Assembly: GCA_002748055.1 (NCBI GenBank) | Contig: PDRI01000095.1 | Coordinates: 3,081 to 67,080 of the forward strand | DNA from: Bacteroidota bacterium | Lineage (GTDB): Bacteria; Bacteroidota; Bacteroidia; Bacteroidales; GCA-2748055 | Direction of reading: 5' to 3' | DNA length: 64,000 bases | Shown: piece by piece, positions 3,001 to 46,213 of the stretch | Numbering within the stretch: the first letter of the stretch is position 1 | How the letters are laid out: every line of letters begins with the position of its first letter | Position numbers and translations under genes: made by a program | Notes under the pieces: generated by a model | What the model was told of the DNA's origin: nothing | Seen by the model: the letters and a program-made list of their open reading frames with translations, nothing else | Databases searched by the model: none

Positions 3001-6000
3001 GATTAAAACAACGCTGATATCGAGCATTCCGGGTGCAACATCGACATCTCCTTCATCCACCTCGTAAGCCAGCTCATACAAGCCATCTCCAAATTCAGTG
3101 AATGTAACCCTGTCCGAACTAATGGGAACTCCATTAATGATGGTACCTGTAGCAACGCCATAGCCTTCATCATCGGCCGTAATCGTAACCTGAACGATAC
3201 CCCCGACGCCTACTTCCAGATCCGGTACCTCGAGACGATCGACCACGGGTGGATTGGCATCGATAATCACTGCACCCACATTCTGTAACAATGCATAAGG
3301 TTCTCCGATGTTCCCTGAAGGTTTTGCAAGCACTACCGAAGCTTCAAGCTCACCTGGCATCACATCCGTCTCACCCTCCTCGACCGTGTACAGCAGGCGG
3401 TAATGTCCACCCCCAAGTTCAACAAACTGAATATTAGCACTATCTGCACTAATCCCATTCACCTGTGATTCCTCCAGTAAGCTATAACTTTCGCCGTCGG
3501 CCTGAATCAATATTTCCACAACATCACCAATCTTATATATACCGGCTTGTACGCTCATGGTTGTAATTTCGGGGTTGGCAGCATCAATGGGGTCGCTATC
3601 CTGAGTGATGAGTTCGTTGTAGGCAATCCCGTTTACCGTTCCGTCGGAAAGCACGAGTTGGGCAACCGGAATGTCTTCCTCGGGAAGGAAGGAGTCTCCC
3701 CCTTCAACAACCTCGAAATTAGCCAGGTAAGTAGTCTCGTCAACACGCTGTAAGTTGTAAAGCGAATAGCCGCCCAACGTACCCGATACCAGACTATAGC
3801 TGCTTCCTCCATCATGGAAAACACGGATGGTGGCCGAGATAATGTCCCCGATTTTCATCGCTGCATTCGGAATGCTCACATTGGTGACAGTGGGCAAACG
3901 ATGACTGACCACCACATCGAAACTGCAGACACTTTCATTACCGGATAAATCCGTAGCTGTATAGCTTACTTCGGTCGTTCCCAGGTTGAATTCACAGCTG
4001 CCCAGATAGTTGATCCCTGTGCCTGGAGAGGATCCGATGGTAGCTCCGTCTAATTCCCAAACCAGGCTCAGCAGATCGCAATTGTCCTCAACAACGGGGT
4101 CCTCAACAAGAAGCAGCGAACTGTTTTCGTTCCTTTCGATGGTATCATGAACGTCTTCGGGACAGCTGGTGAACACCGGAGCTTCATCATCTTCTACTGT
4201 GATTGTCACAAAATTCGATGCGATCTCACCACATTCCACAGTGGCCATTCTCAGATAGAAGGTAGTCTCCGGGAGGCCTTCCGGAGGATCGTAGGAAAGG
4301 CCTGTTGCCCCTGCAATATCACTGAAAACACCACCAGCGGGACGCGATTTCCATTGATAGCTCCAATTACCGGAGCCTCCACTGGCTGCAGTCAGTGAAT
4401 TAATCTCTTCGGGATCACCCAGGGGACAGATCTCCTGGTCGCTTCCGATGGTTCCTCCATCCAGGACTTCGTTTACAACAACCGTTTCAACGGCTGAATA
4501 AGCGGAAGTTCCTGCCGAATTGTAGGCCAGAACCCGGTAGTAGTAGGTTGTCAGATTCTCTGTATTCAGATCTGTCCATTCCTCGCTATCTGCGGAGAGA
4601 TCCGCTACAACAGTGTAGGCTGCCACTCCCTGTTCCCTCCGCTGAACAATAAACCCGGCTTCGTTATCACTGTTATCGGTCCAGATCAGATCGACAGAAC
4701 AGACATTGTTCGCACTACCCTGTAAATCGCTTGGAGCTTCGGGTGGTGCAAGCTCGGTCATCGCATTTCCGGTAGCCGGGGCCGATGCACCTGCCAGGTT
4801 CTCGGCATACACCCTGTAGTAATAGCGCTTGTTGTCGTCCAATCCAGTGTCTTCAAAGGAAGTAACATTCTCGCCAACACTTCCGACTTCTGTATAACTG
4901 CCAAAAACCGAATTAGCCCTGTAAATGGAAAACTCATCCTCGTTGAAGGAATTGTCGTTCCAGGAAAGAACCATCGACGACGAGGTAATCTCACTAAAGT
5001 CCAGTCCGTCCGGAGCCACTGGAAGGGTAGGCATCGTTGTAGCCGATGCACTGGCATAGCTGTCCGAACTTCCTCCGGAATTAAATGCATAGACCCTGTA
5101 ATTGTAGCTGGTCTCTTCCAGAAGCGATGTTGAGACATAGCTAGTTACATTGGCTGCAACCTTCCCGTCTTTGACAAAGAGGCCTGATTCAGCAGTCGAG
5201 CGGTAAATCTCAAAGCCTTCTTCATCGTTTGAATTGTCTGTCCAGAACAATTCAACAGAGGATGCAGTAATCGATCCGGTGGATAGATTTGAAGGGCTGC
5301 TGGGGGGAAGTGGAAGGGTGCGCACTGAAGCCTGGCTAAAGTCTGAACTTCCTCCTGCATTCACAGCATAAACCCTGTAATAATAGCGCCGATAGGGTGT
5401 GAGGCCCGTATCAGTAAAACGCGTCACATCGGCCCCGACAGATCCTACAACCTGATACAAAAAGCTTGAATAGCGTGAGCGCTCAATCCGGAAGCCGGTT
5501 TCATTGTCAGAATTGTCCTCCCAGACAACATCCAGGCTGGTGCTGCCGATATTCTCAAAATCAACCAAAGAGGGCTTAGCAGGCGGATCGGGCAGGGTCG
5601 TCTCACTTCCGTGAGCATAGCTACTGGATTGTTCAAAGCCCTTATAAGCGAAAACCCTGAAGTAGTATTGGGTATTGCTGACCAGACCGGAAGCCAGATA
5701 GGTGGTCACATTTGCTCCGACACTCCCGATTAAAAGCCAGGAGCCGAAGATGCTTGTTCGGGCATAGATACGAAAACCTGTCTCATCCGTTGAATGATCG
5801 TCCCAGATGAGCTCAATCGAATTATTTGTTACTTCCCCAAAACGCAGATTACTTGGTCCGATTGGTGGTGCAGCCAGGGTAGTGACATTGCCGGAAGCCG
5901 GACCAGAACTACCTCCTGTGTTCACAGCATAGACCCTGTAGAAGTAGTCTGTCAATGGCGTTATTTCATTGGTATCCAGATAGCTTACTTCATCGGCCGG

Positions 6001-7455
6001 GGTGGTACCCACCTGATTGTAATCCCCCTCTTCAGAAAGTGCCCTGTGAATCGTGAACCAATCTTCATTGTCGGCATTGTCGGTCCAACTCATCGATACC
6101 GAAGCGCTGGAGACCCCTGAAAAGGCGAGATCTGTGGGTGCGGCTGGTGCCGACGGAAGGGTTGTTTCATTGCCCTCGAGAACCGAAGATGAACCGGCTG
6201 CATTCAGTGCTACAATGCGAAAATAATACGTGGTTTCTTCCGAAAGGCCCGTTACCGTAAAAGTCGTAACATCCGTTCCCACACTACCCTGGGAGCTAAA
6301 GCCCCCGGACGAACCGGTCGACATAAATATCTCAAAAGAATCCTCGTTATCGGAGTTGTCGGTCCAGTTTAAGGTAATCGATGAAGAAGTAACAGCACTA
6401 AAGACAAGATCGCCCGGGGCAGCAGGAATCTCGGGGTCTGTTGTGACTTCCAGCACTTCCGTATAGGCCGAAGGCCCGACATTATTCACAGCCCGGACAC
6501 GGAAATAATACGTGGTCGCTGCACTAAGCGAAGTAAGCGTATAAGATGTAAGATCCGGTTCCGTGGTATGGACCGGGCTGAAATCCCCGTCATTGCCTGT
6601 CAGTGACTGTTCAATTTCAAAGCCATTCTCATCCGATGAATTGTCGTTCCAATTCAACTCAATGCTGCTACTGGTGACCGCAGCACTCGCAAGCATATCC
6701 GGAGCATCGGGAAGGCCGTTCAGGTAGTCGGCCACGGCAAGGGCCCATGCCTTACCCATTTTGTCGTATCCCGATTGCAATAAGTGGATGCCATCAGCTT
6801 CAAAGTCTCCGGGATAGTCAATCCCTGCACCAAGTTCCATATCTACCAGAACAAGCCCTGGATCACCCCTGTCAGCTACCATCAGCGCAATATTGTCGTT
6901 CAGATCGCTAATGTCTGAACTGAGTGGATAGGTGTTTACGATACGAGCCACAAAGACCTGCACATGTTTTCCATTAGCCACTTCCCACGCGTCAATCTCA
7001 TCCAGAATCCGGGCGATGGTATCGGCCGAACTTCCCTCTCCATCCAGTACATCGTTCGTGCCAATATGCAACAGAACAATGTCGGGTGAATAGACATCCA
7101 GATAAGGCTGCCCTCCGGTGGAATAAGCTTCTTCGATGTCCTCCCCGGTCTGCAACAGGTTCAGCACATTGGAATCGGAAGTATTCGGAATACCCGCATG
7201 CTCGGTATCGGTCATCAAAAGAGAACCCGAGGACTTATGTCCGATCATATCGCTGCTGTACCCCTCCGCTGTGAGGCTGTCTTTTAAAACAAGACGATAG
7301 GAGACCCTCTCCTCCATCGGAAGAGAACCCCGGCCTTCGGTAAGCGAATTGCCCAGTGGAAGAATTTTTACAGATTGCCCCGCAGCAATCGCTGAAGACA
7401 GCAGGAGCAGAAACATTATCGGCGTGATCAGGGCCTGGATGTATGACTTTTTCAT
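1..7455 (-). CDS. Partial (3'-truncated by the window edge) giant secreted protein of at least 2485 aa. Order: signal peptide, SGNH/GDSL hydrolase, 8 FN3-like repeats, HYR-like domain, three ~95-aa Ig-like modules, PKD-like domain, and the start of a T9SS C-terminal sorting domain.
   Basis: Not in the supplied ORF track. Manual reverse-strand translation from the ATG at 7455..7453 stays in the frame that ends exactly at base 1 (7455 = 3 x 2485), and I saw no stop. The N-terminus MKKSYIQALITPIMFLLLLSSAIAAGQ looks like a signal peptide. SGNH blocks: LPLGNSLTEG, LLHIGTNDV, DGIHLLQSGYDKMG. There are eight ~93-aa units with W(T/N)DNS.(N/D)E.GF.I.R and YY(Y/F)RV.A.N..G.S. HYR-like: APVFTSCPEDV...VEDNCD...TATDLSGNESVCSFDVVV. 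PKD-like: WLWTFGDPGSG...HHYERAGTYSIFL. The tail LYPNPARKLVNVNL sits at bases ~1-60. Confidence 0.85.
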   Translation of the reverse strand, partial: MKKSYIQALITPIMFLLLLSSAIAAGQSVKILPLGNSLTEGRGSLPMEERVSYRLVLKDSLTAEGYSSDMIGHKSSGSLLMTDTEHAGIPNTSDSNVLNLLQTGEDIEEAYSTGGQPYLDVYSPDIVLLHIGTNDVLDGEGSSADTIARILDEIDAWEVANGKHVQVFVARIVNTYPLSSDISDLNDNIALMVADRGDPGLVLVDMELGAGIDYPGDFEADGIHLLQSGYDKMGKAWALAVADYLNGLPDAPDMLASAAVTSSSIELNWNDNSSDENGFEIEQSLTGNDGDFSPVHTTEPDLTSYTLTSLSAATTYYFRVRAVNNVGPSAYTEVLEVTTDPEIPAAPGDLVFSAVTSSSITLNWTDNSDNEDSFEIFMSTGSSGGFSSQGSVGTDVTTFTVTGLSEETTYYFRIVALNAAGSSSVLEGNETTLPSAPAAPTDLAFSGVSSASVSMSWTDNADNEDWFTIHRALSEEGDYNQVGTTPADEVSYLDTNEITPLTDYFYRVYAVNTGGSSGPASGNVTTLAAPPIGPSNLRFGEVTNNSIELIWDDHSTDETGFRIYARTSIFGSWLLIGSVGANVTTYLASGLVSNTQYYFRVFAYKGFEQSSSYAHGSETTLPDPPAKPSLVDFENIGSTSLDVVWEDNSDNETGFRIERSRYSSFLYQVVGSVGADVTRFTDTGLTPYRRYYYRVYAVNAGGSSDFSQASVRTLPLPPSSPSNLSTGSITASSVELFWTDNSNDEEGFEIYRSTAESGLFVKDGKVAANVTSYVSTSLLEETSYNYRVYAFNSGGSSDSYASASATTMPTLPVAPDGLDFSEITSSSMVLSWNDNSFNEDEFSIYRANSVFGSYTEVGSVGENVTSFEDTGLDDNKRYYYRVYAENLAGASAPATGNAMTELAPPEAPSDLQGSANNVCSVDLIWTDNSDNEAGFIVQRREQGVAAYTVVADLSADSEEWTDLNTENLTTYYYRVLAYNSAGTSAYSAVETVVVNEVLDGGTIGSDQEICPLGDPEEINSLTAASGGSGNWSYQWKSRPAGGVFSDIAGATGLSYDPPEGLPETTFYLRMATVECGEIASNFVTITVEDDEAPVFTSCPEDVHDTIERNENSSLLLVEDPVVEDNCDLLSLVWELDGATIGSSPGTGINYLGSCEFNLGTTEVSYTATDLSGNESVCSFDVVVSHRLPTVTNVSIPNAAMKIGDIISATIRVFHDGGSSYSLVSGTLGGYSLYNLQRVDETTYLANFEVVEGGDSFLPEEDIPVAQLVLSDGTVNGIAYNELITQDSDPIDAANPEITTMSVQAGIYKIGDVVEILIQADGESYSLLEESQVNGISADSANIQFVELGGGHYRLLYTVEEGETDVMPGELEASVVLAKPSGNIGEPYALLQNVGAVIIDANPPVVDRLEVPDLEVGVGGIVQVTITADDEGYGVATGTIINGVPISSDRVTFTEFGDGLYELAYEVDEGDVDVAPGMLDISVVLIDPAGNECEAAEDLELNELEIYTDLPIALLAGTSEVCRGDIAELTIFLNGREPWYIELSDGTDTMSYTEVSVSNYSLPVMPDDTTTYQILLVRDVNGVENTGSGVVTLNVNPVTDVEITNLASAYPYDADPVILEANIPGGIFSGPGVFSGSGTFDPAIADTINSPHDIVYSYVNQNGCVSYDTALVFVLGNNGGLYIPDDRVCANGGVFLASASNVTGIVGQFSLTNASGNPVGGLTDNGNNTASINPANLSEGEYTIHYTYVDRGATLNLSRTFTVETISPPIILGLEESYCQNSGLLALQADVEDVVFEGPGVISSDSGYYFDPLEVSPGVHSILCRVTTGNGCSASSLTELDILSAPVVDFSLNATCIADTGGIVGFRNLTKGKLGVKHWLWTFGDPGSGALDTSRVVSPDHHYERAGTYSIFLSAIDSSGCLSEKRMDKHIGTYLSADFTWTSDCLPEDDGLVFMDRTLSGQSPADTAIWSFMAEDGSLLQQIGVAADSGSVKFDFAQAGLYRVELLTGTAEGCMDSITKDVNLRQTVKLSESGFTEAFDLSTGGWTMESEDQVSSWVWETPDFDGFEGASGDRAFFTRLPETQIGYEEHSWVQSPCYDFSEIDRPMISMDLMRSFAPERDGAVLQYQLNREDGWQTVGELESGIGWYNIPQVVNKPGGSEEAWGLEVFNPDTDWQTAVHGLKELAGEPGVMFRVILGTQGREGIGNQGFAFDNVSFKRRTRKAVLEYFTNSADLSARNADELVDAFAEENHNDVIDLQYHMDYPGNDPMNQNNQIAPETRAFNYGIPTVPYAVMDGGFEPEYRFDFAGVKATRALEQGLRLTLYPAEFDLDLSVNWEDSGLEATTTTTCRVASYVDNLQLYVVVFEREVTAYTGENGDTEFRNVVLDMLPTPSGKLIGSSWSFGQSDVRTNTWDYKSYVEDVDDLGVAAFIQDRNSKRILQANVAYKKKGPDGIFGSPLASLALYPNPARKLVNVNLGRQSGKDG
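4474..6711 (-). repeat. In-frame tandem array of 8 fibronectin type III-like domains (~93 aa each) inside the giant minus-strand CDS.
   Basis: The signature recurs eight times in the manual translation: S(S/A)(I/V).L.W.DNS.NE.GF.I.R ... T.Y.(D/V)..L...T.YYYRV.A.N..G.S. 2238 bp / 8 = ~280 bp per unit. Confidence 0.8.
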
Positions 7456-7859
7456 GTGCTTGATTTTGCTTTCGAAATGCCTCCGGATTGGGTCCCTGGA
7501 GTGCACCTATACAAATCTAAAAGATTTTTGCTGCTGTCTGAGTCCTATTTGATTAACCCGATCAATTCTGCCATGAATTACGATGAAAAGCCCGGCAGAA
7601 AGAAATCTGTCCATCTGACAATTTATAAAATACTGTTATTCTGCGTATTATACAATCTCTCCCAAGCTTTATCCTGCACGAGTCAAAAACAGAAAAATCA
7701 ACAGCGATCAGAATTCATCAACGAAATTCTTCCATTTATACCGAAATTTTAACAGTTCGTCCAAATCAAGCTGTATCCGGAGAAATGCTCCCCGTGACGG
7801 AACAGCTATAACTGCACTTCGATGGCGACTTTTTCCATTGATTAGGACGGTGAGAATAC

Positions 7860-8963: not shown

Positions 8964-9875
8964 ATGTTTAACGACCTCACCATTGCACTTCCTGTATACA
9001 AAAGAACGGACTTCGTAAGAAAAGCTCTTGACAGTGCTGTAAACCAGACCGTAGCTTGTAAAATCGTATTAATCGACAACAACTCACCCCATGATGATTT
9101 CAAGCGCATCGTGGAAAGCTATAACAATCCGAACATCAAGTATGTCAAAACGGAAACAACCGTACCCCAGGATGAAAACTTCAACAACTGTTTCAGGTAT
9201 TCCGATACCACCTGGGTAACCGTTCTTCATGACGACGACATGCTTCATTGCCAATACGTGGAGTTTTGCCAGAAAATCATTCAGGAAAGGCAGGACCACA
9301 TTGGCGGTATTATTTACCAGTGCCATGTAAGTGAAGAAGAATGGAAAGAGGTGGATAAGCCCACCAGCCTCACCTCCTCGATCCGGAAGCTGAATCCGGC
9401 CTATTTTCACTTTCACAACATCCCCTTCCCTTCTGTACTTGTAAAACGCGAAACTGCGCTTGAGCTGGGGGGGTTTATTAACGACCTGCATCCCATTGCC
9501 GACTTCGATTTCTGGTACAGGTATACCAAACGGGAACAGGTTTACTTTGTGGATCAGCAAATGGCCTATTTCCGGATTTCCCCCATGCAATCGACCAACC
9601 ACCTAATTGAAGCCATGATCAATAACATCTACGACTACCGAATGCGGGAGATCGCCGCCAGTAAACACAATACCAAGAGGGCCAGACTCTGCGTGGAATA
9701 TGTGCGGGTGGTAAATATCGACTATTTCCTGGGCACCTATCCAAACCTGATCATCCCCGAATACATCCTGAACGATAAAAATGTTCAGCGCACCCGGAAG
9801 CGGATGAAATCGAGCCTGTACCGAAAATACATGGAACGTTATATGCGAAAGTTGTCCTTCGGCCCTCAATCCTAA
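8964..9875 (+). CDS. Family 2 glycosyltransferase.
   Basis: 303-aa ORF. LTIALPVYKRTDFVRKALDSAVNQT...IVLIDNNSPHDD and LHDDDM. It starts 40 bp after the previous GT2. Confidence 0.8.
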   Translation: MFNDLTIALPVYKRTDFVRKALDSAVNQTVACKIVLIDNNSPHDDFKRIVESYNNPNIKYVKTETTVPQDENFNNCFRYSDTTWVTVLHDDDMLHCQYVEFCQKIIQERQDHIGGIIYQCHVSEEEWKEVDKPTSLTSSIRKLNPAYFHFHNIPFPSVLVKRETALELGGFINDLHPIADFDFWYRYTKREQVYFVDQQMAYFRISPMQSTNHLIEAMINNIYDYRMREIAASKHNTKRARLCVEYVRVVNIDYFLGTYPNLIIPEYILNDKNVQRTRKRMKSSLYRKYMERYMRKLSFGPQS

Positions 9876-9897: not shown

Positions 9898-12800
9898 ATG
9901 AAAAAAGGAATACTTACAACACTCTTCCTCTCCTTCTTCCTGTTCTTGTTTTTTGCCCCCGAAGCAGAGGCCCAAACAGTGGTCTTCGATCAGGAGATTT
10001 ACTGGGAGCACCCCATTCCAAAGCCCTATGGAGGTTACGGCTTTTACTGGTGGCACCGAACCGATGGTGGATACTACAACATCAATTACGGGAGCATGCC
10101 TTCGGACAACTGGAGCGCATACTATAACGGGGAATGGACGATTCGCTTCGAGATTCTCGACATGCCTTCCTCCGAGCCCTTTACCATCCAGTTTGGCATC
10201 TGGCAGGATCAAGATAAGGGAGGCGCGCATCCTGAAACGGTATCCGGACAACAGCAAATTGTCCCCGGTTCGGTCTATAGCGCAAGCCTGGGAAGCCCGA
10301 GCAGTTGGTGGAACAAAGAACCCGGAGACCCCGTCGACTTTAGCCGCCCTGGAGATTTCTACCGAATTGGTCTCGTACTCTGGAACCCGAATCCTTTGTG
10401 CCTGTTAAAAGGCCCTGAATGGGGAGGAGGCGGATGCCCGGAGAATGCATACAAGTATTTCCCCATGCGGGCCCGTGTCACGGTTACAGCCACCGGGGGA
10501 GAAGCTCCTCCCGTTGATCCGCCAAGTTATGGTATCGATTACCAGAATGAGCGAAGCGATGCCCCGGTTTCCTCCGATGACGAGTATGCCTACAATGCGG
10601 ACTTCTCGGATGCCGTAAGCGGCAGTGGCGCCTATCTTGGCCTCACACCCGGTCAAAACGTCTATTTCCGAAAGAAGGCCGATCATTCAAAGACCCAGAC
10701 CCTTGAGGTTCCCTCCAGGGCTGCTGCCCCTTCTTTCTCCATTAACTTTCAGAGTGAAGCAACGAATGAGGCTGTAAGCAATGCTCACGAATTTGCCTCA
10801 GCCAACGATTTTAGTGATGCACAGGATGGAAACGGGAACCCTGTGTCCATCGTTCCGGGACAGTCATTGTTCATTCGGACAAAAGCCACATCCTCGGCCT
10901 TTGCCTCCGAAACCCTGGCACTGACCCCCCCGGCACGACCGGCAGCTCCTGACTTTGGCATTGATTTTACGAACGAAGTGACAACGCTGGCCATTCCAGA
11001 GACCATGGAATATGCCAGCAGTGCCGATATGTCGGAAGCAGTCCAGGGCGTGGGCACTCCCCTCAGCCTAAGCCCCGGTAATGAGCTGTTTTTCCGCTAC
11101 CGGGCAACGGCAAGCGATTTTGCATCGGAACAGCTGCATTTAGAGGTTCCCGAAAGACCGGCTACACCGACATACAGTATTGATTATGCGAATGAGACAA
11201 CTGCTGAAGCCGTTTCCAGCAGCGACGACTACAGCCCGGCATCGGACATGAGTGGTGCCTCGGCAGGCAATAATGAGGTGCTCACGCTTACCCCGGGTTC
11301 CAACCTTTACTTCAGAACCAGGGCTACTTCAAACAGCTTCCAATCGGACATCCAGACCCTCGTGGTCCCCGGTCGTGCGGCAACACCCAGCTTCAGCATC
11401 AATTTCATTGCTGAAACCACAAACGAAGCGGCAGAAGATTACATGGCCTATTCGACCCAGGCCGATATGAGCAATCCGGAATTTGGCGGGGGTGACCCGA
11501 TCGCTTTGAACCCCGGAACCGACCTCTACATCCGGCAGGAATCCTCAGCTGCAGGCTTCCAGTCGGACATCCAGCATCTGCAGGTTCCGGAAAGGGAAGC
11601 CGCACCAGCGTTTGGTTTTGAATACCTTACAGAACAAACCAGTACGGCAGTCGGCAGCGATCATGAATATGCTGACAATTCAGATTTCCAGAACGCTACA
11701 AGTGGCAATGGTGAGCCTGCCCCGGTTATCCCCGGGCAGATCCTTTACATCAGGCTGAAAGCTACTGCTGTGGCCTTTGCATCGGCAAGCCAGCAGCTCG
11801 ACATACCTGCACGCCCCGAAGCCCCCGAAATCGGCATCGACTTTGTTGCCGAAGAAACAGACGATGTGATCAGCAGCTCCATGGAATACGCGACACTCCC
11901 CGATATGAGCGATGCTGTCAGTGGGGATGGAACAGCCATTGCCGTCGCACCAAATGCAGACATCTACATCCGGTACATCGCCACCCCCAGCAGCTTCAGC
12001 TCCGAAATTCAGCACCTGGATGCCCCCGGCCGGAGTCCAACACCGGCTTACAGCATCGATTTTGATCATGAAACGACCTTTCAGACCATTGACGAGCTGG
12101 ATGAGTACTCAAATGATCCGGGCATGGCAGGGGCCACTGCCGGTTCGGGGACTGTTCTGGCACTCACTCCGGGTAGCACGGTGTATTTCAGGACCACGGC
12201 CGGAACACACGGTTTCCTGTCGGAAATTCAAACCCTTGAGATTCCCGCACGCCCGGAAACCCCGGCCTTCAGCATAGACTACCTGAACGAATCAACCCTG
12301 GAAAGCCTGAACAACACCTTTGAATATGCGAGTCGGGCCGACATGGCTGATGCCGTTAGTGGCACAGGGAGTCCGGCTCCACTTAATCCCGGAAACCACA
12401 GCTATTTCAGGCAAAAAGCTTCGGCCTCGGAATTCCGCTCCGGAATTCAGGATCTGGATGTGCCCGGACGCCCCCAGGCACCGGAATTTGATTTTGACTA
12501 TCTGACCGAGGAAACCACCACTTCTGTTGGTCCCGGCTACGAATATGCTGCCAGCAGTGATTTCAGCGATGCCATCACCGGAAATGACAATCCGGCACCC
12601 GTTGTTCCGGGTCAGGCTTTTTACATCAGGGCAAAATCGAGTACCACTTCATTTGCTTCTGAAGCCCAGGTTCTGGCGATCCCCTCTCGACCAGATGCTC
12701 CTGCTGTAGGGATAAATTACCTGACGGAGAAAACGGATGTGCCCATTCCCGAAACCATGGCCTTCTCTGCGGATGCAGATATGACAGAAGCCGAAACCGG

Positions 12801-14772
12801 GACCGGCATGCCTCTGGATGTTCCACCGGGCACACAATTGTATTTCCGGTACCATGCGAGCAGCAGTAGTTTTGCATCCCATATTCAACATCTGGATGCA
12901 CCTGAGCGTGGGACACCGGCCTTCAACATCGACTTTGAGGAGGAACAAACGGTAGAAATTCTGACAGCCAATGATGAATATGCCACAAACATTGAAATGA
13001 GTGGTGCCAGAACCGGAACCGGAACCAGAATCGCGATCAGTCCGGGCACCAGTCTGTACTTTCGTTCAAAAGCCAGTGCTACGGCATATATGACGCTTGT
13101 CCAAACGCTTGTCGTACCCGAACGGCCCGAATTGCCGAACTTTGAGATCGACTACCAAAACGAAAGAACGAGCTCCATCGTCAGTTCCGGCTTCGAGTAC
13201 TCCAGCACTTCCGATATGCAGAATGCCTTAAACGGCACAGGATCCCATGTCGATCTGACACCCGGCAAGAACATGTATTTCAGGGTAAGAAGCGGTGCTT
13301 CTTCCTTCCACTCGGAGATTCAGACCCTGATTGTTCCTGGCAGGTCCGCGGCTCCGAACTTTGGCATTGATTTTATGGAAGAAGAAACGACTCCAGCACT
13401 TGGGAGTGAACATGAATATGCTTCCAATATTGATTTCAATGGTGCCATCAGCGGAAATGGAAATCCTGCCCCCCTTATCCCGGGCGAATCCATGTACATC
13501 AGGTTCAGGGCGCTTTCAGACGCATTTGCATCTGAGGCTCAACACCTGGTGGTTCCCGCAAGGCCCGACAGGCCATCCATCGGAATTGACTATGTGAGAC
13601 AGCGAACCGATGTAAGCATCCCTGCGTCTATTGAGTATTCGCTTCAGAGCAATATGCATGATGCAACAGCCGGCAGTGATGATTACCTCCAGGTACCTCC
13701 GCAAACCAATCTGTACTTCAGGGTAATCGGAACCACCACGACATTCAAGTCTGATGTTCAACACCTTTCCTCCCCTGCCAGGCCAGCGAAACCAGCTTTC
13801 GAAATCAATTATGCCCTGGAACAGACTAAAACAGCGGCAGCCGAAAACGTGGAGTACTCAACACAGAGCGACATGAGCAATTCCCTCATATCGGATGGCG
13901 ATTACATCCCCCTCACTCCCGGACAGGACTTCTATTTCAGATTTTTAGCTACAACCAGCTCTTACGATTCTGATATTCAACATCTTTCTGTTCCATCCAG
14001 AAGGCCTGCACCGGGATTTGGTTTTAGCTATGAGTCGGAACTGATCCTGCCGGCCATAAGCAGCAACTATGAGTATGCCGATAACCCGGAAATGACCAAT
14101 GCCCTAAGTGGCACTAACAACAGGCTAAGTGTGATTCCGGGACAGCCCCTCTATATCAGACAGAAGGCCGGTAACAATTCCTTTGCCTCTGAAACGCAAA
14201 TGATGGACATCCCTTCCCGACCGGTGCTCAGCAGCAGCGACACGGATACAACCGGCAGCAATCCACTGGTCCTGACCCTCACCTATCCGTCAAATATGAG
14301 TGATTTTGTCCAGGACAGCCTAAAGCTTGAAAATGCCAGCTTGCTTTCGGTCACAAAGATCTCCGAAGGAGACGATGCCAATGTCTATGAGCTTTCCTTA
14401 AACTGCACAGAAGGCGCGGTCAGGGCAGAACTGGCAGCCAACGCAATCCCGCAAGGCAGTTTCAGATCGGAACCCTTCAGCATCTATTACAAAGCAGGCT
14501 ATATCAATGGACTGCAGGAGTCCGGATCACTTTCGGTTAAACTCTATCCAAACCCGAACGCCGGAAGGCTCTTCCTGGAGTCCAATCAGGAGGCTGGCAG
14601 GCTTCAATACATTTGGATTTACAATGTTACAGGCAGCCTTGTACATACAGGCAGGCTTGATGGACAGTATCGTGCCGAGCTCAATCTCGAAGGATTGGAA
14701 AAAGGCATCTACTTCCTCAGAGTGGATACACAAAAGACAAGAATCCACTCCAAATTTCAACTTTATAAATAG
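9898..14772 (+). CDS. Giant secreted repeat protein (1624 aa). Order: signal peptide, unknown ~180-aa N-terminal domain, 17 tandem ~73-aa units, Ig-like module, T9SS C-terminal sorting domain.
   Basis: Signal peptide MKKGILTTLFLSFFLFLFFAPEAEAQ. Repeats have the consensus AP.F.IDY..E.T.......EYA...DMS.A..G.G....L.PG...YFR.KA....FAS..Q.L.VP.RP. The C-terminus KLYPNPNAGRLFLES...GIYFLRVDTQK..SKFQLYK matches the Por_Secre_tail pattern. Confidence 0.9.
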   Translation: MKKGILTTLFLSFFLFLFFAPEAEAQTVVFDQEIYWEHPIPKPYGGYGFYWWHRTDGGYYNINYGSMPSDNWSAYYNGEWTIRFEILDMPSSEPFTIQFGIWQDQDKGGAHPETVSGQQQIVPGSVYSASLGSPSSWWNKEPGDPVDFSRPGDFYRIGLVLWNPNPLCLLKGPEWGGGGCPENAYKYFPMRARVTVTATGGEAPPVDPPSYGIDYQNERSDAPVSSDDEYAYNADFSDAVSGSGAYLGLTPGQNVYFRKKADHSKTQTLEVPSRAAAPSFSINFQSEATNEAVSNAHEFASANDFSDAQDGNGNPVSIVPGQSLFIRTKATSSAFASETLALTPPARPAAPDFGIDFTNEVTTLAIPETMEYASSADMSEAVQGVGTPLSLSPGNELFFRYRATASDFASEQLHLEVPERPATPTYSIDYANETTAEAVSSSDDYSPASDMSGASAGNNEVLTLTPGSNLYFRTRATSNSFQSDIQTLVVPGRAATPSFSINFIAETTNEAAEDYMAYSTQADMSNPEFGGGDPIALNPGTDLYIRQESSAAGFQSDIQHLQVPEREAAPAFGFEYLTEQTSTAVGSDHEYADNSDFQNATSGNGEPAPVIPGQILYIRLKATAVAFASASQQLDIPARPEAPEIGIDFVAEETDDVISSSMEYATLPDMSDAVSGDGTAIAVAPNADIYIRYIATPSSFSSEIQHLDAPGRSPTPAYSIDFDHETTFQTIDELDEYSNDPGMAGATAGSGTVLALTPGSTVYFRTTAGTHGFLSEIQTLEIPARPETPAFSIDYLNESTLESLNNTFEYASRADMADAVSGTGSPAPLNPGNHSYFRQKASASEFRSGIQDLDVPGRPQAPEFDFDYLTEETTTSVGPGYEYAASSDFSDAITGNDNPAPVVPGQAFYIRAKSSTTSFASEAQVLAIPSRPDAPAVGINYLTEKTDVPIPETMAFSADADMTEAETGTGMPLDVPPGTQLYFRYHASSSSFASHIQHLDAPERGTPAFNIDFEEEQTVEILTANDEYATNIEMSGARTGTGTRIAISPGTSLYFRSKASATAYMTLVQTLVVPERPELPNFEIDYQNERTSSIVSSGFEYSSTSDMQNALNGTGSHVDLTPGKNMYFRVRSGASSFHSEIQTLIVPGRSAAPNFGIDFMEEETTPALGSEHEYASNIDFNGAISGNGNPAPLIPGESMYIRFRALSDAFASEAQHLVVPARPDRPSIGIDYVRQRTDVSIPASIEYSLQSNMHDATAGSDDYLQVPPQTNLYFRVIGTTTTFKSDVQHLSSPARPAKPAFEINYALEQTKTAAAENVEYSTQSDMSNSLISDGDYIPLTPGQDFYFRFLATTSSYDSDIQHLSVPSRRPAPGFGFSYESELILPAISSNYEYADNPEMTNALSGTNNRLSVIPGQPLYIRQKAGNNSFASETQMMDIPSRPVLSSSDTDTTGSNPLVLTLTYPSNMSDFVQDSLKLENASLLSVTKISEGDDANVYELSLNCTEGAVRAELAANAIPQGSFRSEPFSIYYKAGYINGLQESGSLSVKLYPNPNAGRLFLESNQEAGRLQYIWIYNVTGSLVHTGRLDGQYRAELNLEGLEKGIYFLRVDTQKTRIHSKFQLYK
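10519..14223 (+). repeat. Coding tandem array of 17 units of ~69-73 aa (207-219 bp), organised as a 4-unit super-repeat.
   Basis: The conserved aromatic anchor codon (F/Y of P.F.IDY) of the type-A units lies at 10735, 11611, 12487 and 13360, with spacings of 876, 876 and 873 bp. The last type-A unit is at 14017, a spacing of 657 bp (3 units). Unit 1 (anchor 10528) is a distinct variant ending DHSKTQTLEVP. Confidence 0.85.
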
Positions 14773-14798: not shown

Positions 14799-17273
14799 AT
14801 GAAAACAAAACATCTGATTCTCGCTTTTCTAAGCGTGCTCTTATCAATCGGTTTCGTGTCCAGGACAGAGGCCCAGACCACCGTTTTTGACCAGGAAATC
14901 TACTGGGAGCACCCCATTCCCAAGTCCTATGGAGGTTATGGCTTCTACTGGTGGCACCGGACCGATGGTGGCTACTACAATATTAATTACGGGAATATGT
15001 CTTCAACCGATTGGAGCCCCTACTATAACGGAGAATGGACCATCCGTCTCGAGGTTTTGGACATGCCTTCTTCCGAACCCTTCATCATCCAGTTTGGCAT
15101 CTGGCAGGATCAAAACAAGGGAGGCGCTCATCCCGAAACCGTATGCGGACAACAATTTGTAACCCCCGGATCGGTCTATACAGCAAGCCTGGGCAGTCCC
15201 AGCGGATGGTGGAACAAAGAATCCGGAGACCCGGTCGATTTTTACCGCCCGGAGGATTTTTACCGGATTGGCCTCGTGCTATGGAATCCCAATCCATTTT
15301 GCCTCTTAAAAGGCCCGGAATGGGGACCTGGTGGATGCCCGGAGAATGCATACAAGTTCTTTCCCATGCGCATGAGGGTTACTGTAACCGCCACGCAGGG
15401 TCCCGGCGGACAACCCATCAATCCCCCAAATTATGGCATCGACTACTATAGTGAAAGAACCAGCACTGTTGTTTCTTCGACTGACCAGTACAGCTATACT
15501 TCAGATTTCGCCACGGTTTATAACGGGAACAATGACTACCTAAACCTGACCCCGGGGCAAACCGTATATTTCAGAAAAGCCTCCGATCACTCGAAGACAC
15601 AGACCCTCAATGTGCCTGCGAGGCCGGCTGCACCCTCCTTCGCGATTGACTACGCAAACGAGGCGACAGCGACTGCCGTGTCCTCCGGCTATGAGTACGC
15701 TACCCAATCGAATATGAGTGATGCCGTCGACGGGAATGGCTCAGTTGTATCCATTGAACCCGGCTCCACCATTTACATCAGACAGAAAGCCACGAATTCC
15801 TCCTTCCTTTCCGACATCCAGACGCTTGCCGCACCGGCACGCCCTGCAGCTCCGGCTTTTGAAATCGACTACATGAGCGAACAGACCAGTACACCGGTGA
15901 GTGCCGACTACGAGTATTCTTCTGCTGCCGATATGACCGGGGCCGTTTCAGGTACTGGCCTTGCAGTGGCACTTACACCTGGTGAAACGAGCTACTTCAG
16001 ACAGAAAGCCAGTTCTTCTTCCTTCGCCTCTTCAATCCAGACCCTTGCTGCACCGGTAAGGCCGGCAGCTCCAGCTGCATTCTCTGTTGATTATCTGAAC
16101 GAGCGAACCGGCATACAAATTCCTGCAACAATGGAGTACAGCAGCAATCCGGCAATGGAGAACCCTACTGAAGGAAGCGGAACCTACCTGAGCCTCACAC
16201 CTGGCACCGACATGTATTTCAGAAACAAAGCCAGCGATGCGGCCTTTGCATCCGAAGCCTTCCATCTGGTTGTAGGAGCCCGTTCTTCTGCTCCAGGCTA
16301 TAGCATTGATTTTCTGAATGAAGCCACCACCGAAGCTGTAAGTGAGCAGGACGAGTATGCAACAAACCCGGAAATGACCGATGCACAGAGTGGAGAGAAT
16401 AAACCCATAGCGCTAATCCCCGACACTAGCATTTATCTCAGGACGAAATCAACCGTAACGGCCTTCGCCTCCGAAATCCAGACCCTCAGTGCACCAGCCA
16501 GGCCTGCAGGCCCGGTCTTTAGCATTGACTATGCAAATGAATCGACCGTGGAAGCTGTCAACAGCAACATCGAATATGCCGATAACGAGCAAATGAACAA
16601 TGCCCGTGCAGGGAGCGGAGAGACTGTCCCGCTTGTTCCCGGCACGACGCTGTACCTCAAAAGCAAAGCAAGCACAACGGCCTTTGCATCTTCGGTGAGC
16701 ATGCTTGAGGCTCCGGCACGACCTGTGATAAGCAGTAGTGAGTCGGAGAGTACGAGCAATAACCCCTTAGTCGTGAATTTCAGCTTTTCTTATACTGCAA
16801 GCGGCCTTACAACAGATGGAATCTCGGCTGAAAATGCCACAGTTAGCTCGATTAATCTGATCTCCTCTGAGCCTGATGGCAGCGTCTATGAATCGCTTAT
16901 TGTTGGCAATGCCAAAGGTGAAATCAGCCTGGTGGTCAATGCCAATGCCGTAAGTGAAGGCAATTTCAAATCGGATACCTTCAAGATAGATTACCTAACC
17001 AGCACAGGCCCGGAAAGGCCCGGAGAAAAGGCTTCGTTCAGGATCTATCCAAATCCGAGCTCAGGCAAGTTCTATATTAAAGGAAATCATTTTGACAATG
17101 AACAGATTGAGCTCTCGATCTATTCGGCAAGTGGCGTCCTTTCTTACAGAAACAGCAAGCTGAGAAGCGAAGATGAAATAGTCCTTCAGCTGGAAGGCCT
17201 GGAACCCGGTCTTTACTACCTGAAGGTAAAAGACGGAGACAGGATCCTGTCGGCCAAAATGGTGCTGGAGTAA
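14799..17273 (+). CDS. Paralog of the preceding gene (824 aa). Same N-terminal domain, 6 tandem ~72-aa units, Ig-like module, T9SS C-terminal sorting domain.
   Basis: Signal peptide MKTKHLILAFLSVLLSIGFVSRTEAQ. The N-terminal domain shows about 25 differences in ~177 aligned residues versus the upstream gene (manual count). C-terminus: RIYPNPSSGKFYIKG...GLYYLKVKDGDRILSAKMVLE. Confidence 0.9.
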   Translation: MKTKHLILAFLSVLLSIGFVSRTEAQTTVFDQEIYWEHPIPKSYGGYGFYWWHRTDGGYYNINYGNMSSTDWSPYYNGEWTIRLEVLDMPSSEPFIIQFGIWQDQNKGGAHPETVCGQQFVTPGSVYTASLGSPSGWWNKESGDPVDFYRPEDFYRIGLVLWNPNPFCLLKGPEWGPGGCPENAYKFFPMRMRVTVTATQGPGGQPINPPNYGIDYYSERTSTVVSSTDQYSYTSDFATVYNGNNDYLNLTPGQTVYFRKASDHSKTQTLNVPARPAAPSFAIDYANEATATAVSSGYEYATQSNMSDAVDGNGSVVSIEPGSTIYIRQKATNSSFLSDIQTLAAPARPAAPAFEIDYMSEQTSTPVSADYEYSSAADMTGAVSGTGLAVALTPGETSYFRQKASSSSFASSIQTLAAPVRPAAPAAFSVDYLNERTGIQIPATMEYSSNPAMENPTEGSGTYLSLTPGTDMYFRNKASDAAFASEAFHLVVGARSSAPGYSIDFLNEATTEAVSEQDEYATNPEMTDAQSGENKPIALIPDTSIYLRTKSTVTAFASEIQTLSAPARPAGPVFSIDYANESTVEAVNSNIEYADNEQMNNARAGSGETVPLVPGTTLYLKSKASTTAFASSVSMLEAPARPVISSSESESTSNNPLVVNFSFSYTASGLTTDGISAENATVSSINLISSEPDGSVYESLIVGNAKGEISLVVNANAVSEGNFKSDTFKIDYLTSTGPERPGEKASFRIYPNPSSGKFYIKGNHFDNEQIELSIYSASGVLSYRNSKLRSEDEIVLQLEGLEPGLYYLKVKDGDRILSAKMVLE
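15423..16724 (+). repeat. Coding tandem array of 6 units of the same ~72-aa repeat family.
   Basis: Units begin PPNYGIDY, APSFAIDY, APAFEIDY, AAFSVDY, APGYSIDF and GPVFSIDY. The first unit again ends DHSKTQTLNVP. Confidence 0.85.
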
Positions 17274-17352: not shown

Positions 17353-18942
17353 CTATCGGAGATACCTAAATGCAGCATCAATAACAAAGCTTCCCTCGCT
17401 CTGGTGCAGATGGTGGGTCGCAAGCAACCCCCGGTTAGAAGCCGGGTAAAAAACCCTTACAAGCTCTTCGCTGTATCCTTCAAGATCGAGTCTGACGATC
17501 CTGTTCAGGTTAAGGGCTTTTCCATAGATTCCGTCTTCGTTCCGTTGCGAAGGCCTGTAGAATTCCCCATTAAAGGAGAAGATCCTGCCTGCATTACGGG
17601 CCACCCGGCTATCAGTAATCACGGGATTCTGAGGATGGGGAATGATGCTGTTCAGTTTCAGGGAATCGACCTTATAAATATACAGCTCGCTGTCGACCGG
17701 ACTGTTTGGATCTGTTTGTTTGTTGGTAAACAACCATTTCTGCCCAAATTCATCATCAAAGAAAGAGGAATCGAAAAGGAGCTCCCCATGGAAAGCTGTT
17801 ACATAAAGCTCCCAGGAATCGGGAAAGCGCTTGCAGCGATAGATCTCCAGACGTTTATTCCCACTCGTTTCAGGCATTAAATACAACTCGCCCTGATCCT
17901 CAAAAATATTGGGATAGGACAAATGATAGGGTTTTACAAGTACATCTCTGATGTCGCTCAGTTCATGTCCCAGGAGCCTTCCACAGGAGATCTTGCCCAT
18001 CTGGCTTCTGTGATCGATGCTTTCAAAAAACACATACTGATCATCATTCTGCTTATACAGAAAAGGATCTGCCCATTCCTCACCTTTGCAGGGAAACACA
18101 ACATCGGTCCTGCATTTATCATGATCCAGAAAGTCGCCCTCTCCAAAGAACAGGGTCCAGCAAAAATAACGGCTGCTCCTGAGACGGTAATTCAGCCTGT
18201 GTAAAAGTTTGACAAAGAGGCCCGAATAGAATTGAAAGAGATAGTACAAGAAATGCCTTCCCCGTGGTAGTGCAGCATGCTGCTGTACTGAATCCGGGCC
18301 GGCATCTCTTCCTGCCGGAAGCTCGCCTGAAGCAAGCCTGCGCACTGCCTTCACCATTAGGGACACAGCCCCTTCCAAAGCCATCACCCTGCACTTTGAA
18401 ATGGAAAAACTCCGGTTGAAAAAGGCTTCATCAATAACAGACTGGGCCCCGAATTCCGATCCGCTGGCTATCAACCTGGCCCGTACACCCGCCTGCCTGT
18501 GCAACACCTCCCAGAAACCCACATGATGCTCATGTTTGTAGGCCTTCTCACCCAATTGCAGAGACAATGCTCCCAGGCGTGTTTTTACGACGAGAAGCTC
18601 CGGGGGCAGATCCAATTCAAGGCTGATGATAAGATCCGGACTGAAAGCACCGCTCAGGCCCTGCCCATCGTTCCCAAGAGCAACAATCTCGGTACCATCC
18701 AGCAAATCACCCGGCACTCTTTCTCCGGACTCGATCCCAAATAGTTGCCTTTCGAGCTTCATCTCCATCTCAAAGCAAGGCTCCCACCATCTTCCGGGTC
18801 GGAATTTGTGCCTGCATGAAGTTTCAAACCGATAAACAGTAGTCAGGCAAAGATCCGGATGCGCCAGAATCTCCCTGAGTATCCTCAACTTCCAGTTGGG
18901 AATCGCTTCGATGTCGTTGAGATATACGCCAAGGCTCAGCAT
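17353..18942 (-). CDS. Two-domain protein of uncertain function. The N-terminal half is formyltransferase-like. The C-terminal half resembles the bacterial family annotated as glucosamine inositolphosphorylceramide transferase (GINT1-like).
   Basis: The track ORF begins with TTG at 18945 and the ATG follows immediately at 18942. C-terminal motifs EEWADPFLYK, YVFFESID, HLSYPNIFEDQGELYLMPETSG, LEIYRCKRFPDSWE are recalled from that family. The assignment is from memory only. Confidence 0.45.
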   Translation of the reverse strand: MLSLGVYLNDIEAIPNWKLRILREILAHPDLCLTTVYRFETSCRHKFRPGRWWEPCFEMEMKLERQLFGIESGERVPGDLLDGTEIVALGNDGQGLSGAFSPDLIISLELDLPPELLVVKTRLGALSLQLGEKAYKHEHHVGFWEVLHRQAGVRARLIASGSEFGAQSVIDEAFFNRSFSISKCRVMALEGAVSLMVKAVRRLASGELPAGRDAGPDSVQQHAALPRGRHFLYYLFQFYSGLFVKLLHRLNYRLRSSRYFCWTLFFGEGDFLDHDKCRTDVVFPCKGEEWADPFLYKQNDDQYVFFESIDHRSQMGKISCGRLLGHELSDIRDVLVKPYHLSYPNIFEDQGELYLMPETSGNKRLEIYRCKRFPDSWELYVTAFHGELLFDSSFFDDEFGQKWLFTNKQTDPNSPVDSELYIYKVDSLKLNSIIPHPQNPVITDSRVARNAGRIFSFNGEFYRPSQRNEDGIYGKALNLNRIVRLDLEGYSEELVRVFYPASNRGLLATHHLHQSEGSFVIDAAFRYLR

Positions 18943-18981
18943 CAAAAGGCCTGTATTGGTCTCAGAGAGAGATGGAAGGAA

Positions 18982-20999: not shown

Positions 21000-21006
21000 G
21001 GCCTTC

Positions 21007-31514: not shown

Positions 31515-31579
31515 CTTCTACAATTTCTCTCTATAGCCTCCTTTAGCAAGACAAGTCCCACGTTATTAATGCATTTTTG

Positions 31580-43428: not shown

Positions 43429-43460
43429 CTGGGGATAATTATCTGGTCTTTGACGGATAT

Positions 43461-43495
43461 AAAATAGGGTGCCAATCGTTCCGACACCCTATTTT
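43461..43495 (-). terminator. Hairpin terminator or attenuator between two co-oriented T9SS cargo genes.
   Basis: AAAATAGGGTG-n13-CACCCTATTTT is an 11-bp perfect stem. On the minus strand it is followed by TTTTAT. Confidence 0.55.
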
Positions 43496-45917: not shown

Positions 45918-46213
45918 AGCAAATAATTGTTTTTGTAATTGACTGTAATCTCTTACGGAAATCTTTCAAGAAGGTTTGTAAATCGTAAATAAATATTTTA
46001 ACACTAACATCTAAGGCTCACTACTTAAATACCTAAAGATAAAGATTTGGGTTGCAGCTTGCCTTCTCATTTTGACCGGCTTGCGGTATTCGATGACATC
46101 CCGGCTCAATTGCTTTCACCCTGATGGCAAAGTGCCAAGCACTAAAAAACAGCCATTCGTCCAGCGGGAATCGCCATTGGTCACAAGATAATACAATTCT
46201 AACACTCCCAAAA

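Follow-up and report, generated by a model that had tools for sequence, protein, structure and literature searches.

RemA of Flavobacterium johnsoniae is an adhesin that carries a lectin domain and belongs to the T9SS type A cargo (PMC8481357), and our literature search, which returned nothing on the domain described below, offered RemA alone as an analogy. Other points of comparison are provided by the families CBM30, CBM22 and CBM4/9, by the surface glycan-binding lipoproteins of Bacteroidota PULs and, with regard to evolution, by tandem surface paralogs that undergo concerted evolution.

Here, we describe genes A and B, two tandem ORFs of one shared layout within the window, the whole stretch of 64,000 nt that was analyzed. 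Both proteins consist, in this order, of a signal peptide, an N-terminal "head" domain, a stalk of repeats (17 in A), a spacer, and a T9SS type A C-terminal sorting domain. The account that we favor, with moderate confidence, is that A and B are T9SS stalk proteins with a conserved, glycan-linked jelly-roll tip that was shaped by selection together with old recombination in its core.

The source of the DNA is a Bacteroidota MAG, and the features discussed below are the following:

8964..9875, + strand: GT2 glycosyltransferase, 303 aa; stops 22 nt before gene A
9898..14772, + strand: gene A, 1624 aa, PID91732.1, "hypothetical protein" in GenBank (exact database match, ORF list)
9898..9972, + strand: A signal peptide, residues 1-25 (ending PEAEA, followed by QT), read from the translation
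9973..10494, + strand: A head domain, residues 26-199; predicted beta-jelly-roll of an unannotated family
10000..10464, + strand: A head core, residues 35-189; putative old conversion or recombination tract
10495..14214, + strand: A linker and 17 stalk repeats, residues 200-1439; ~73 aa each, period from motif spacing
14215..14532, + strand: A spacer domain, residues 1440-1545
14533..14769, + strand: A T9SS type A C-terminal sorting domain, residues 1546-1624 (PF18962 at 1549-1620, E = 1.2e-11; TIGR04183)
14799..17273, + strand: gene B, 824 aa, PID91733.1; layout of A but with 6 stalk repeats
14874..15395, + strand: B head domain, residues 26-199; HMM score 315 bits
14901..15365, + strand: B head core, counterpart of the putative tract in A
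15396..16715, + strand: B linker and 6 stalk repeats, residues 200-639
16716..17270, + strand: B spacer and T9SS type A C-terminal domain, residues 640-824 (PF18962 at 749-822; TIGR04183)
19743..22452, - strand: Wzy-like (418 aa) and Wzx-like (481 aa) membrane proteins, cassette members

The type A sorting domains of both proteins score above the curated cut-offs by which T9SS cargo is recognized, with 45.1 bits (A) and 44.8 bits (B) for PF18962 (cut-off 27) and 35.4 and 38.2 bits, respectively, for TIGR04183 (cut-off 23). Both N-termini are hydrophobic and, judged from the translations alone, have the character of Sec signal peptides, ending in AEA (A) or TEA (B) before QT. The Sec signal peptide would carry A and B to the periplasm, and the type A domain, by analogy with T9SS cargo that has been studied, would direct export and attachment to the cell surface, where both proteins are probably anchored. 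The counterpart of the A spacer in B has a weak Pfam match to Big_12; for the stalk repeat, neither a Pfam match nor a relative among PDB sequences was found. Like RemA, A and B combine a Sec signal, a type A C-terminal domain and a sugar-related domain that is presumably displayed on a long protein. Unlike RemA, they match no lectin family in Pfam, the head being an unannotated jelly-roll, their stalk is built from another, 73-residue repeat, and their genes are located inside a Wzx/Wzy cassette. We know of no link of A or B to motility. A six-frame HMM search detected no third copy of the head within the 64-kb window. Four further ORFs in the window carry C-terminal sorting domains, at least five T9SS cargo genes are clustered at this locus, and PL14 and SGNH cargo proteins are also encoded there.

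The head defines an unannotated family of 447 clusters (~450), in which 132 of the 164 domain matches begin within the first 80 residues and the domain nearly always follows a signal peptide. An earlier note on this DNA had not recognized the domain, and database searches bear this out: the head had no Pfam match in any of the proteins scanned (3 + 10 + 54, comprising the genes themselves, 10 relatives and 54 family members) and no match in NCBIfam or among PDB sequences, whether the latter were searched with a single sequence or with a profile. Assignment to a known family, named in that note as the outcome that would speak against it, was thus sought in all three resources and failed. The suggestion of a fold compatible with a beta-sandwich agrees with the AF2 model of the A head, a confidently predicted beta-jelly-roll (pLDDT 94.1, pTM 0.89). 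The best structural matches of this model have TM <=0.40 and E above 0.01, and none is significant. Chains of CBM30 are the best non-viral Foldseek matches (TM 0.39-0.40, probability up to 0.95, E 0.015-0.03), and the nearest folds also include GH16 and PL7 (TM 0.23-0.30, E >=0.035); for the concanavalin A-like lectin/glucanase superfamily (GH16, PL7, LamG), there was no Pfam match and no clear superposition of the head. With CBM30, CBM22 and CBM4/9, the head shares a similar length (~170-190 residues), an aromatic-rich composition and a modular occurrence beside catalytic domains, and its predicted fold is likewise a jelly-roll. It differs in showing no significant sequence similarity to these families or to CBM6, in the non-significant structural E values, and in usually being placed at the very start of a T9SS stalk protein, not beside a glycoside hydrolase.

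The genes that surround A and B recur with the head. In 8 other loci, the gene that immediately precedes the head gene encodes an ortholog of the GT2 glycosyltransferase (55-65% identical), and orthologs of the Wzy-like (50-60% identical) and Wzx-like (65-73% identical) proteins adjoin head genes in loci L002-L009. The latter two are probably Wzy and Wzx, as their sequence character and context suggest; their orthologs in L005 have no match in Pfam. A conserved Wzy-Wzx-GT2-head cassette is thus shared with 8 other loci, usually with the head in T9SS cargo, and the cassette protein of L004 consists of a head and a C-terminal domain only. Elsewhere, the head is fused with SGNH, LamG, CBM6, BACON or FG-GAP modules or with a large domain that weakly matches DUF6298, and head genes adjoin genes for heparinase II/III, Wza/Wzc and CBM60. 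The family members P0007 and P0008 are reminiscent of the surface glycan-binding lipoproteins of Bacteroidota PULs in being short, with a lipoprotein-like signal and the head only, and they adjoin heparinase II/III, FG-GAP and GFO/IDH/MocA genes; A and B differ from those lipoproteins as T9SS cargo in a biosynthetic locus rather than products of SusC/D loci, and no homology of the head to known glycan-binding lipoproteins was found.

Because the head is a fixed member of the Wzy-Wzx-GT2 cassette and is fused to, or encoded beside, carbohydrate-active modules, we infer that its ligand is a glycan. In the arrangement that we propose, the stalk of 17 (A) or 6 (B) repeats of 73 residues would hold the head off the membrane, and the ~174-residue head would be the functional part of the protein, binding, or less likely cutting or modifying, a glycan, probably the polysaccharide of its own locus. 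The two stalk lengths would then mean that the paralogs show nearly the same tip at two heights.

A catalytic jelly-roll (glycanase, lyase or esterase) that acts on the locus polysaccharide, in place of a binding module, is an unlikely identity for the head. Polymer-trimming enzymes are often encoded in polysaccharide loci, the nearest folds include the jelly-roll enzymes GH16 and PL7, head-only proteins and proteins with a head and a C-terminal domain exist in the family, and across 54 diverse members one Glu (E88 of the head) never varies and one Asp and one Arg hardly ever do, all of which would suit an enzyme. However, at ~174 residues the head is below the size of a GH16 or PL7 domain, its many conserved Trp suit a sugar-binding surface, it is often joined to catalytic or catalytic-like domains (SGNH and the weakly matched DUF6298) as binding modules are, and PL14 and SGNH are already represented among the cargo of the locus. 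Less probable still, and to our mind quite unlikely, is a head that serves as an adhesive tip whose target is something other than a glycan, such as a protein, a mineral or a host surface, the locus then reflecting the attachment of cargo to a surface glycan. The clustering of T9SS cargo genes here would fit such a case, as would the linkage of type A cargo to surface lipopolysaccharide in the species studied. Nevertheless, the head gene alone consistently follows the GT2 gene in 8 other loci, glycan-related neighborhoods also surround heads that lack a sorting domain, and the fusion partners are carbohydrate-related.

A bolder extension of the glycan-binding reading, which we regard as doubtful, would have the head found a new family of glycan recognition or trimming wired to Wzx, Wzy and GT2, with the anchored stalks holding or measuring the cell's own polysaccharide layer at two heights; A and B would then represent a so far undescribed protein component of Bacteroidota capsule or exopolysaccharide architecture. 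If the glycan link is true, the ~450 clusters of the head are a candidate for a new family that binds or acts on carbohydrates, without annotation, solved structure or close structural neighbor. Likewise, the Wzy-Wzx-GT2-head cassette would be a genomic handle that names the polysaccharide of the locus as the likely ligand, so that head function is directly testable with a 174-residue recombinant domain.

Comparison of A with B delineates the head sharply. The hand count in the earlier note, a gapless alignment with about 25 differences in ~177 positions, is close to the computed result of 24 differences in 174 gapless residues (26-199), which corresponds to 86.2% protein and 81.0% DNA identity, with 99 of 522 nt differing. 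The range for which this was claimed, 9898..10518, does contain the head but also spans the signal peptide, which is poorly conserved, and 8 residues of the linker. Identity falls sharply on either side of the head. The signal peptides agree at 10 of 25 residues (40%), and a one-residue indel between A and B lies just past residue 201. The stalk repeats are, on average, 40% identical over 17 x 6 unit comparisons, the best pair being unit 1 with unit 1 (59%), and the units within the A array are themselves 39% identical on average; the spacers share 34% and the last 185 residues 33% of their positions. The repeats are therefore far more divergent than the head, as had been proposed, and the alignments gave no sign of the equal divergence of head and repeats that would have contradicted this. 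With 10 Trp, 13 Tyr and ~21 Gly in 174 residues (Trp makes up ~0.1% of the remaining protein) and two conserved Cys, C168 and C180, the head also matches its earlier description as W/Y/G-rich with two conserved Cys. The long stretches of identical DNA had been overstated: the longest runs are 28, 25, 20 and 15 nt, and shuffling of codon columns yields a mean longest run of 25.4 nt (P = 0.29 for >=28 nt), which places the observed maximum at the chance expectation.

Of the two causes previously proposed for this conservation, purifying selection and gene conversion at the 5' ends, the first is upheld. Strong purifying selection keeps the head conserved, as indicated by the dN of 0.085 and dS of 0.83 (bootstrap 0.54-1.30) of the A and B head cores, a ratio of ~0.1 (0.08-0.15 by counting methods), and by heads that are 65-69% identical across genomes whose four-fold sites match at 0.16-0.26 (null 0.24-0.25). 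Between the A and B heads, four-fold sites match at 0.49 against a null of 0.26. Maximum likelihood estimates of dN/dS (Biopython) had an unstable dS, ranging from 3.5 to 16, so NG86 with bootstrap and codon-identity counts were relied on. In total, heads of other genomes are 57-69% identical to those of A and B, with synonymous sites saturated; between genomes, the head is 57-67% identical, compared with 50-73% for the neighboring GT2, Wzx and Wzy, and the tails are only 26-37% identical. All 13 of the 13 positions that are conserved family-wide are identical between A and B. Head conservation is owed mainly to selection at the protein level, not to homogenization, and the stalk, spacer and sorting domain drift much faster. 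The evolutionary pattern itself is unsurprising because conserved heads on fast-evolving stalks are common in bacterial surface proteins.

The synonymous sites carry an additional signal. In the head core, A and B share the codon at 82 of the 121 conserved residues versus 47.9 expected (z = 6.6). Codon identity is at the chance level in the signal peptide (3/9), at the head edges, which are identical in protein (2/16 versus 5.7 expected), and in the linker plus unit 1 (19/52 versus 19.1 expected), which amounts to 82/121 in the core versus 24/77 in the flanks, and a segment scan yields P = 0.01. Apart from the spacer, synonymous similarity between A and B is retained only in the head core, with the edges, signal peptide and unit 1 at chance, and so the core most likely shares a younger A/B ancestor (dS ~0.8) than the flanking sequence, through old conversion or recombination between the tandem copies, a conclusion drawn from modest numbers of sites (16 at the edges and 52 in the linker and unit 1). 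The lower dS inside the putative tract than in the flanks is the pattern expected of gene conversion. The spacer, which has low protein identity, keeps codon identity above chance (21/36 versus 12.4 expected), and the history is accordingly more complex than a single head tract. Conversion at the 5' ends, the second cause put forward earlier, thus holds in part: the core at residues 35-189 probably has a separate old history, but codon use in the signal peptide and over the first 9 residues of the head is at the chance level.

The relationships among genomes are consistent with such a history. The A and B heads are each other's closest relatives (86% identity versus <=67% to any other head), and in unit 1 and the tails A and B resemble the counterparts in other genomes as much as they resemble each other, a discordance that unequal rates could mimic. 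A relative, L005/L009, shows recombination directly, with breakpoints inside the head or close to it. As in other cases of concerted evolution in tandem surface paralogs, there is a local drop in synonymous divergence, the flanks are saturated, head and flank relationships appear to disagree, and related loci display clear mosaics; unlike in those cases, the putative A/B tract is old and devoid of near-identical stretches, and selection explains most of the conservation.

Purifying selection alone, following one whole-gene duplication after which the head was constrained and the rest diverged fast, would leave the uneven synonymous signal to noise or estimator bias, and we consider this somewhat unlikely. 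The low dN/dS and the family-wide conservation of the head are what it predicts, and the codon identity of the spacer is in line with it. Furthermore, pooled four-fold matches outside the head (22/53) are not clearly different from those inside (31/64), the maximum likelihood dS is no lower for the head than for the tail, and the A tail is a long branch that could itself explain why the B tail resembles other genomes more. Yet retention at the level of the core would give ~35 of 52 matching sites in the linker and unit 1 and ~10 of 16 at the edges, far from the chance values observed, and bootstrapped dS is saturated in 92% of the flank replicates versus 0% of the core replicates. Moreover, in other family pairs with heads 73-83% identical, unit 1 is 75-84% identical, versus 59% here. 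We retain selection combined with a probable old exchange of the core. As the protein sequence of the head edges is identical and their codons are randomized, the A/B pair is a clean, small case in which selection can be separated from old recombination within one domain.

Recent or ongoing gene conversion that homogenizes the 5' parts, with a minor contribution of selection, is highly improbable. It could draw on the sharp drop in identity at both head ends and on recent-looking tracts of 91-98% DNA identity in a related genome. Between the A and B heads themselves, no near-identical DNA tracts were found, the 99 nucleotide differences, the dS of ~0.8 and the chance length of the longest run all argue against recency, the edges are alike in protein and not in codons, and the conservation of heads across genomes is beyond the reach of conversion. 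In addition, the B head has changed by point mutation after its divergence from the sister genome, and the codons concerned do not match those of A. Recent conversion was rejected on the strength of this dS, these runs and the lack of exchange since that split; any exchange of the core between the tandem copies would be old, with none recent.

Comparison with the sister genome also shows how constraint is distributed at short range. Between A and its counterpart A', the head has no nonsynonymous change and the repeats have 21. The head of B differs from that of its ortholog B' by 6 nonsynonymous and 2 synonymous changes, so the constraint on the B head is not uniformly strong. A short conversion from A was considered as the origin of the six clustered B/B' differences and was discarded, as the codons differ from those of A. 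B' is disrupted by an insertion sequence.

Two adjoining genes of the window, each named "hypothetical protein" in GenBank, encode paralogous stalk proteins:

9898..14772, + strand: gene A, ORF of 1624 aa
14799..17273, + strand: gene B, ORF of 824 aa, adjoining A

In both, a signal peptide (residues 1–25) is followed by a head (26–199), a short linker and a stalk of ~73-residue repeats (17 copies in A, 6 in B), and the protein is closed by a spacer and a T9SS type A C-terminal sorting domain. The heads align without gaps, with 24 differences in 174 positions (86.2% protein and 81.0% DNA identity), versus 10 of 25 identical residues in the signal peptides, a mean identity of 40% among the stalk repeats (17 x 6 unit comparisons; best, 59%, unit 1 against unit 1) and 33% in the last 185 residues, here called the tail. 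These values confirm the observation of an earlier sequence-only note that the head is far better kept than the repeats, and its description of a domain rich in Trp, Tyr and Gly with two conserved Cys is borne out by counts of 10, 13, ~21 and 2, respectively. The long runs of identical DNA that it reported do not stand out: the longest between the heads is 28 nt, a length reached or exceeded in 29% of codon-column shuffles. In both A and B, as in most relatives, Gln follows the predicted signal-peptide cut (A-x-A↓Q; window 9970..9975 and 14871..14876), which fits the tendency of secreted proteins of Bacteroidota to begin with Gln, cyclised to pyroglutamate.

The conservation of the head was proposed in that note to reflect either purifying selection or gene conversion at the 5' ends. 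By counting methods, the A and B heads differ by dN 0.085–0.10 and dS 0.7–1.1 (ratio ~0.1), and the remainder of the genes by dN 0.3–0.7 with dS saturated or undefined. The heads of syntenic genes in two other genomes (loci L002 and L003) are 65–69% identical to those of A and B at the protein level, with four-fold sites at conserved codons matching at 0.16–0.26 against a null of 0.24–0.25, a control that shows long-term constraint on the head; between A and B themselves, the match is 0.49 against a null of 0.26. Between genomes, the head (57–67% identity) is kept about as well as the GT2 (55–65%), Wzx-like (65–73%) and Wzy-like (50–60%) proteins encoded next to it, and the tail is only 26–37% identical. 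The sister genome GCA_002754885.1 (locus L024) has orthologues of both genes, A' and B'; between A and A', the head shows a single change, which is synonymous, and none that is nonsynonymous, whereas the repeats show 21 nonsynonymous and 20 synonymous changes. None of the 24 A/B head differences falls at the 13 positions kept in at least 90% of 54 diverse family members. The B and B' heads differ by 6 nonsynonymous and 2 synonymous changes, with all six amino-acid changes in 35 residues around the family-invariant Glu (window 15054..15158, B residues 86–120), where A and A' show none; these changes arose in both lineages, and A was not the template.

Strong purifying selection thus stands, and the proposal of recombination is partly right, for a probable old event in the head core (residues 35–189) and not for the 5' end. 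Identical codons at A/B-conserved residues were counted and compared with the number predicted from codon usage.

Same-codon test between A and B, by region
Head core (35–189): 82/121 same codon, 47.9 expected, z = 6.6
Signal peptide: 3/9, 3.3 expected
Head edges (26–34 and 190–199): 2/16, 5.7 expected
Linker plus unit 1: 19/52, 19.1 expected

At both head edges, the proteins are identical and codons match at chance; a best-segment scan within the head picks residues 35–189 (permutation P = 0.01). In bootstrapped NG86 estimates, the core has a dS of 0.83 (0.54–1.30) and is never saturated, whereas 92% of replicates show saturation in its flanks. A single plain duplication, which would give equal synonymous divergence everywhere, does not fit this unevenness. 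The family relationships agree with the codon evidence for a separate history of the head core: the two heads are mutual closest relatives (86%, with all other heads at 67% or lower), unit 1 and the tails are as near to their counterparts in other genomes as to each other, and the B tail scores higher against the tails of locus L006 than against that of A, a picture that unequal rates could also give. Other family pairs with heads 73–83% identical have unit 1 at 75–84%, versus 59% for A and B. We read A and B as an older duplication with a single, ancient exchange of the head core, at a dS of ~0.8 or roughly 20–40x the divergence from the sister genome, a reading limited by small site counts in the flanks and by unstable maximum-likelihood estimates. 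The spacers (14215..14532 and 16716..17033), with 34% protein identity and the same codon at 21/36 sites (12.4 expected), are not explained by a single exchange tract; their pattern suggests either a recent common ancestor followed by very rapid change of the protein, or exchange over a second tract.

Recombination of the head region is directly visible in a MAG that carries two copies of the tandem pair, with clearly mosaic genes (L005, 7212..12619; L009, 7208..12670). Gene 1 of L005 resembles gene 1 of L009 over the first ~240 nt, has a breakpoint near nt 240, and from there to ~nt 900 resembles its own tandem neighbour (0.81–0.93 versus 0.41–0.79); the second genes of the two copies are 91–98% identical across the head and ~50% beyond. 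One pair among these genes has heads at 94% and tails at 42–49% identity, and another has heads at 78% and tails at 98–99%. Locus L006 (5045..17037) has three intact head genes in an array with a broken fourth (14938..15342, 15288..15473, 15346..17037), probably a frameshifted pseudogene. In B' (827 aa), the end of the sorting domain was lost to an insertion sequence with a DDE_Tnp_1 transposase on the opposite strand (L024 9400..10863; counterpart of window ~17190..17273), probably placing B' outside T9SS secretion in that genome.

The head is a family that is genuinely unannotated, although the proteins that carry it are of a familiar kind. As in the earlier reading, which did not recognise it, the head had no match in Pfam, NCBIfam or PDB sequences with one sequence, a profile or each of 54 members as the query. 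Only 9 relatives came from a word-indexed search; an exhaustive profile search yielded 447 head clusters at E <=0.001, 50 of them at <=1e-30. In 155 retrieved proteins, 132 of 164 head matches start within the first 80 residues. Fusion partners of the head are LamG with SGNH, FG-GAP with a 3-keto-disaccharide hydrolase domain and CBM6, BACON repeats, and CarboxypepD_reg/PEGA repeats; in some relatives, the head stands alone behind a lipoprotein-like signal, in genes adjoining those for Wza/Wzc, CBM60, FG-GAP, heparinase II/III and GFO/IDH/MocA proteins. In P0032, it lies at the C-terminus, behind a large N-terminal region whose sole Pfam signal is a weak, sub-threshold DUF6298. Two proteins (P0034 and P0009) carry a circular permutant directly after the signal peptide, second half first (FxIQFGIWQ ... 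FFPM.A.VT, then VFDQ.I.WE ... GGYGFYWWH ... RFE). Many relatives (P0010-P0012, P0040-P0044) have a second, more divergent head-like domain mid-stalk and, immediately behind each head, the motif TFSGWxNY, both absent from A and B.

These carbohydrate-related fusions and neighbours, in varied positions, are the behaviour of binding modules and, together with the many conserved Trp and one invariant Glu of the family, make glycan recognition our best guess for the role of the head; the main alternative is a small enzyme. The beta-sandwich fold suggested in the earlier note is supported. Among studied proteins, A and B are closest in logic to RemA of Flavobacterium johnsoniae, a cargo adhesin of type A that carries a lectin domain (PMC12618676), by analogy and not by membership, given that no lectin family matches A or B. 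Taking the C-terminal domain as the anchored end, the head would form the distal tip, and A and B would show almost identical tips at the ends of stalks with 17 versus 6 repeats. As a candidate for a new carbohydrate-related module, the head is well defined.

The window represents a polysaccharide locus encoding GT2 enzymes, a WecG-family transferase, proteins similar to Wzx and Wzy and, farther along, Wza-like and Wzc-like ORFs named by size and position only. It encodes at least 4 other T9SS cargo proteins, with SGNH esterase, PL14 lyase or LamG heads; four further large secreted proteins of the locus, each with a repeat stalk and an enzyme or lectin-like head, and the gene following B are:

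1..7506, - strand: GDSL + 7 FN3 + HYR + PKD, running off the window
28191..31517, - strand: PL14 + FN3 + LamG
41227..43488, - strand: GDSL + He_PIG, with a clear T9SS sorting domain
43521..45965, - strand: LamG + He_PIG, with a clear T9SS sorting domain
17353..18945, - strand: GINT1_N-like protein, 530 aa, directly after B (domain E = 4e-33)

GINT1_N is the N-terminal domain of glucosamine inositolphosphorylceramide transferase; of the syntenic loci searched, that of the sister genome alone has a counterpart of this protein. A further 8 loci, in Bacteroidales-like MAGs, have the cassette Wzy(-) Wzx(-) GT2(+) head gene(s)(+), and the number of head genes per locus ranges from one to four. In one of these (L004), the protein consists of the head plus C-terminal domain only, which makes the head the core of the protein and the stalk dispensable. 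The 73-residue stalk repeats (window 10495..14214 and 15396..16715; consensus xRPAAPxFxIDYxxExT...EYA...DM..A..G.G....L.PG...YFR.KA....FAS.IQ.L..P) match nothing above the curated cut-offs of Pfam or NCBIfam and no PDB sequence, the sole signal being NCBIfam MAG6410_fam_LP over part of one unit (~36 bits versus a cut-off of 450). Many genomes have this repeat together with the head, and it seems to be another family that lacks annotation.
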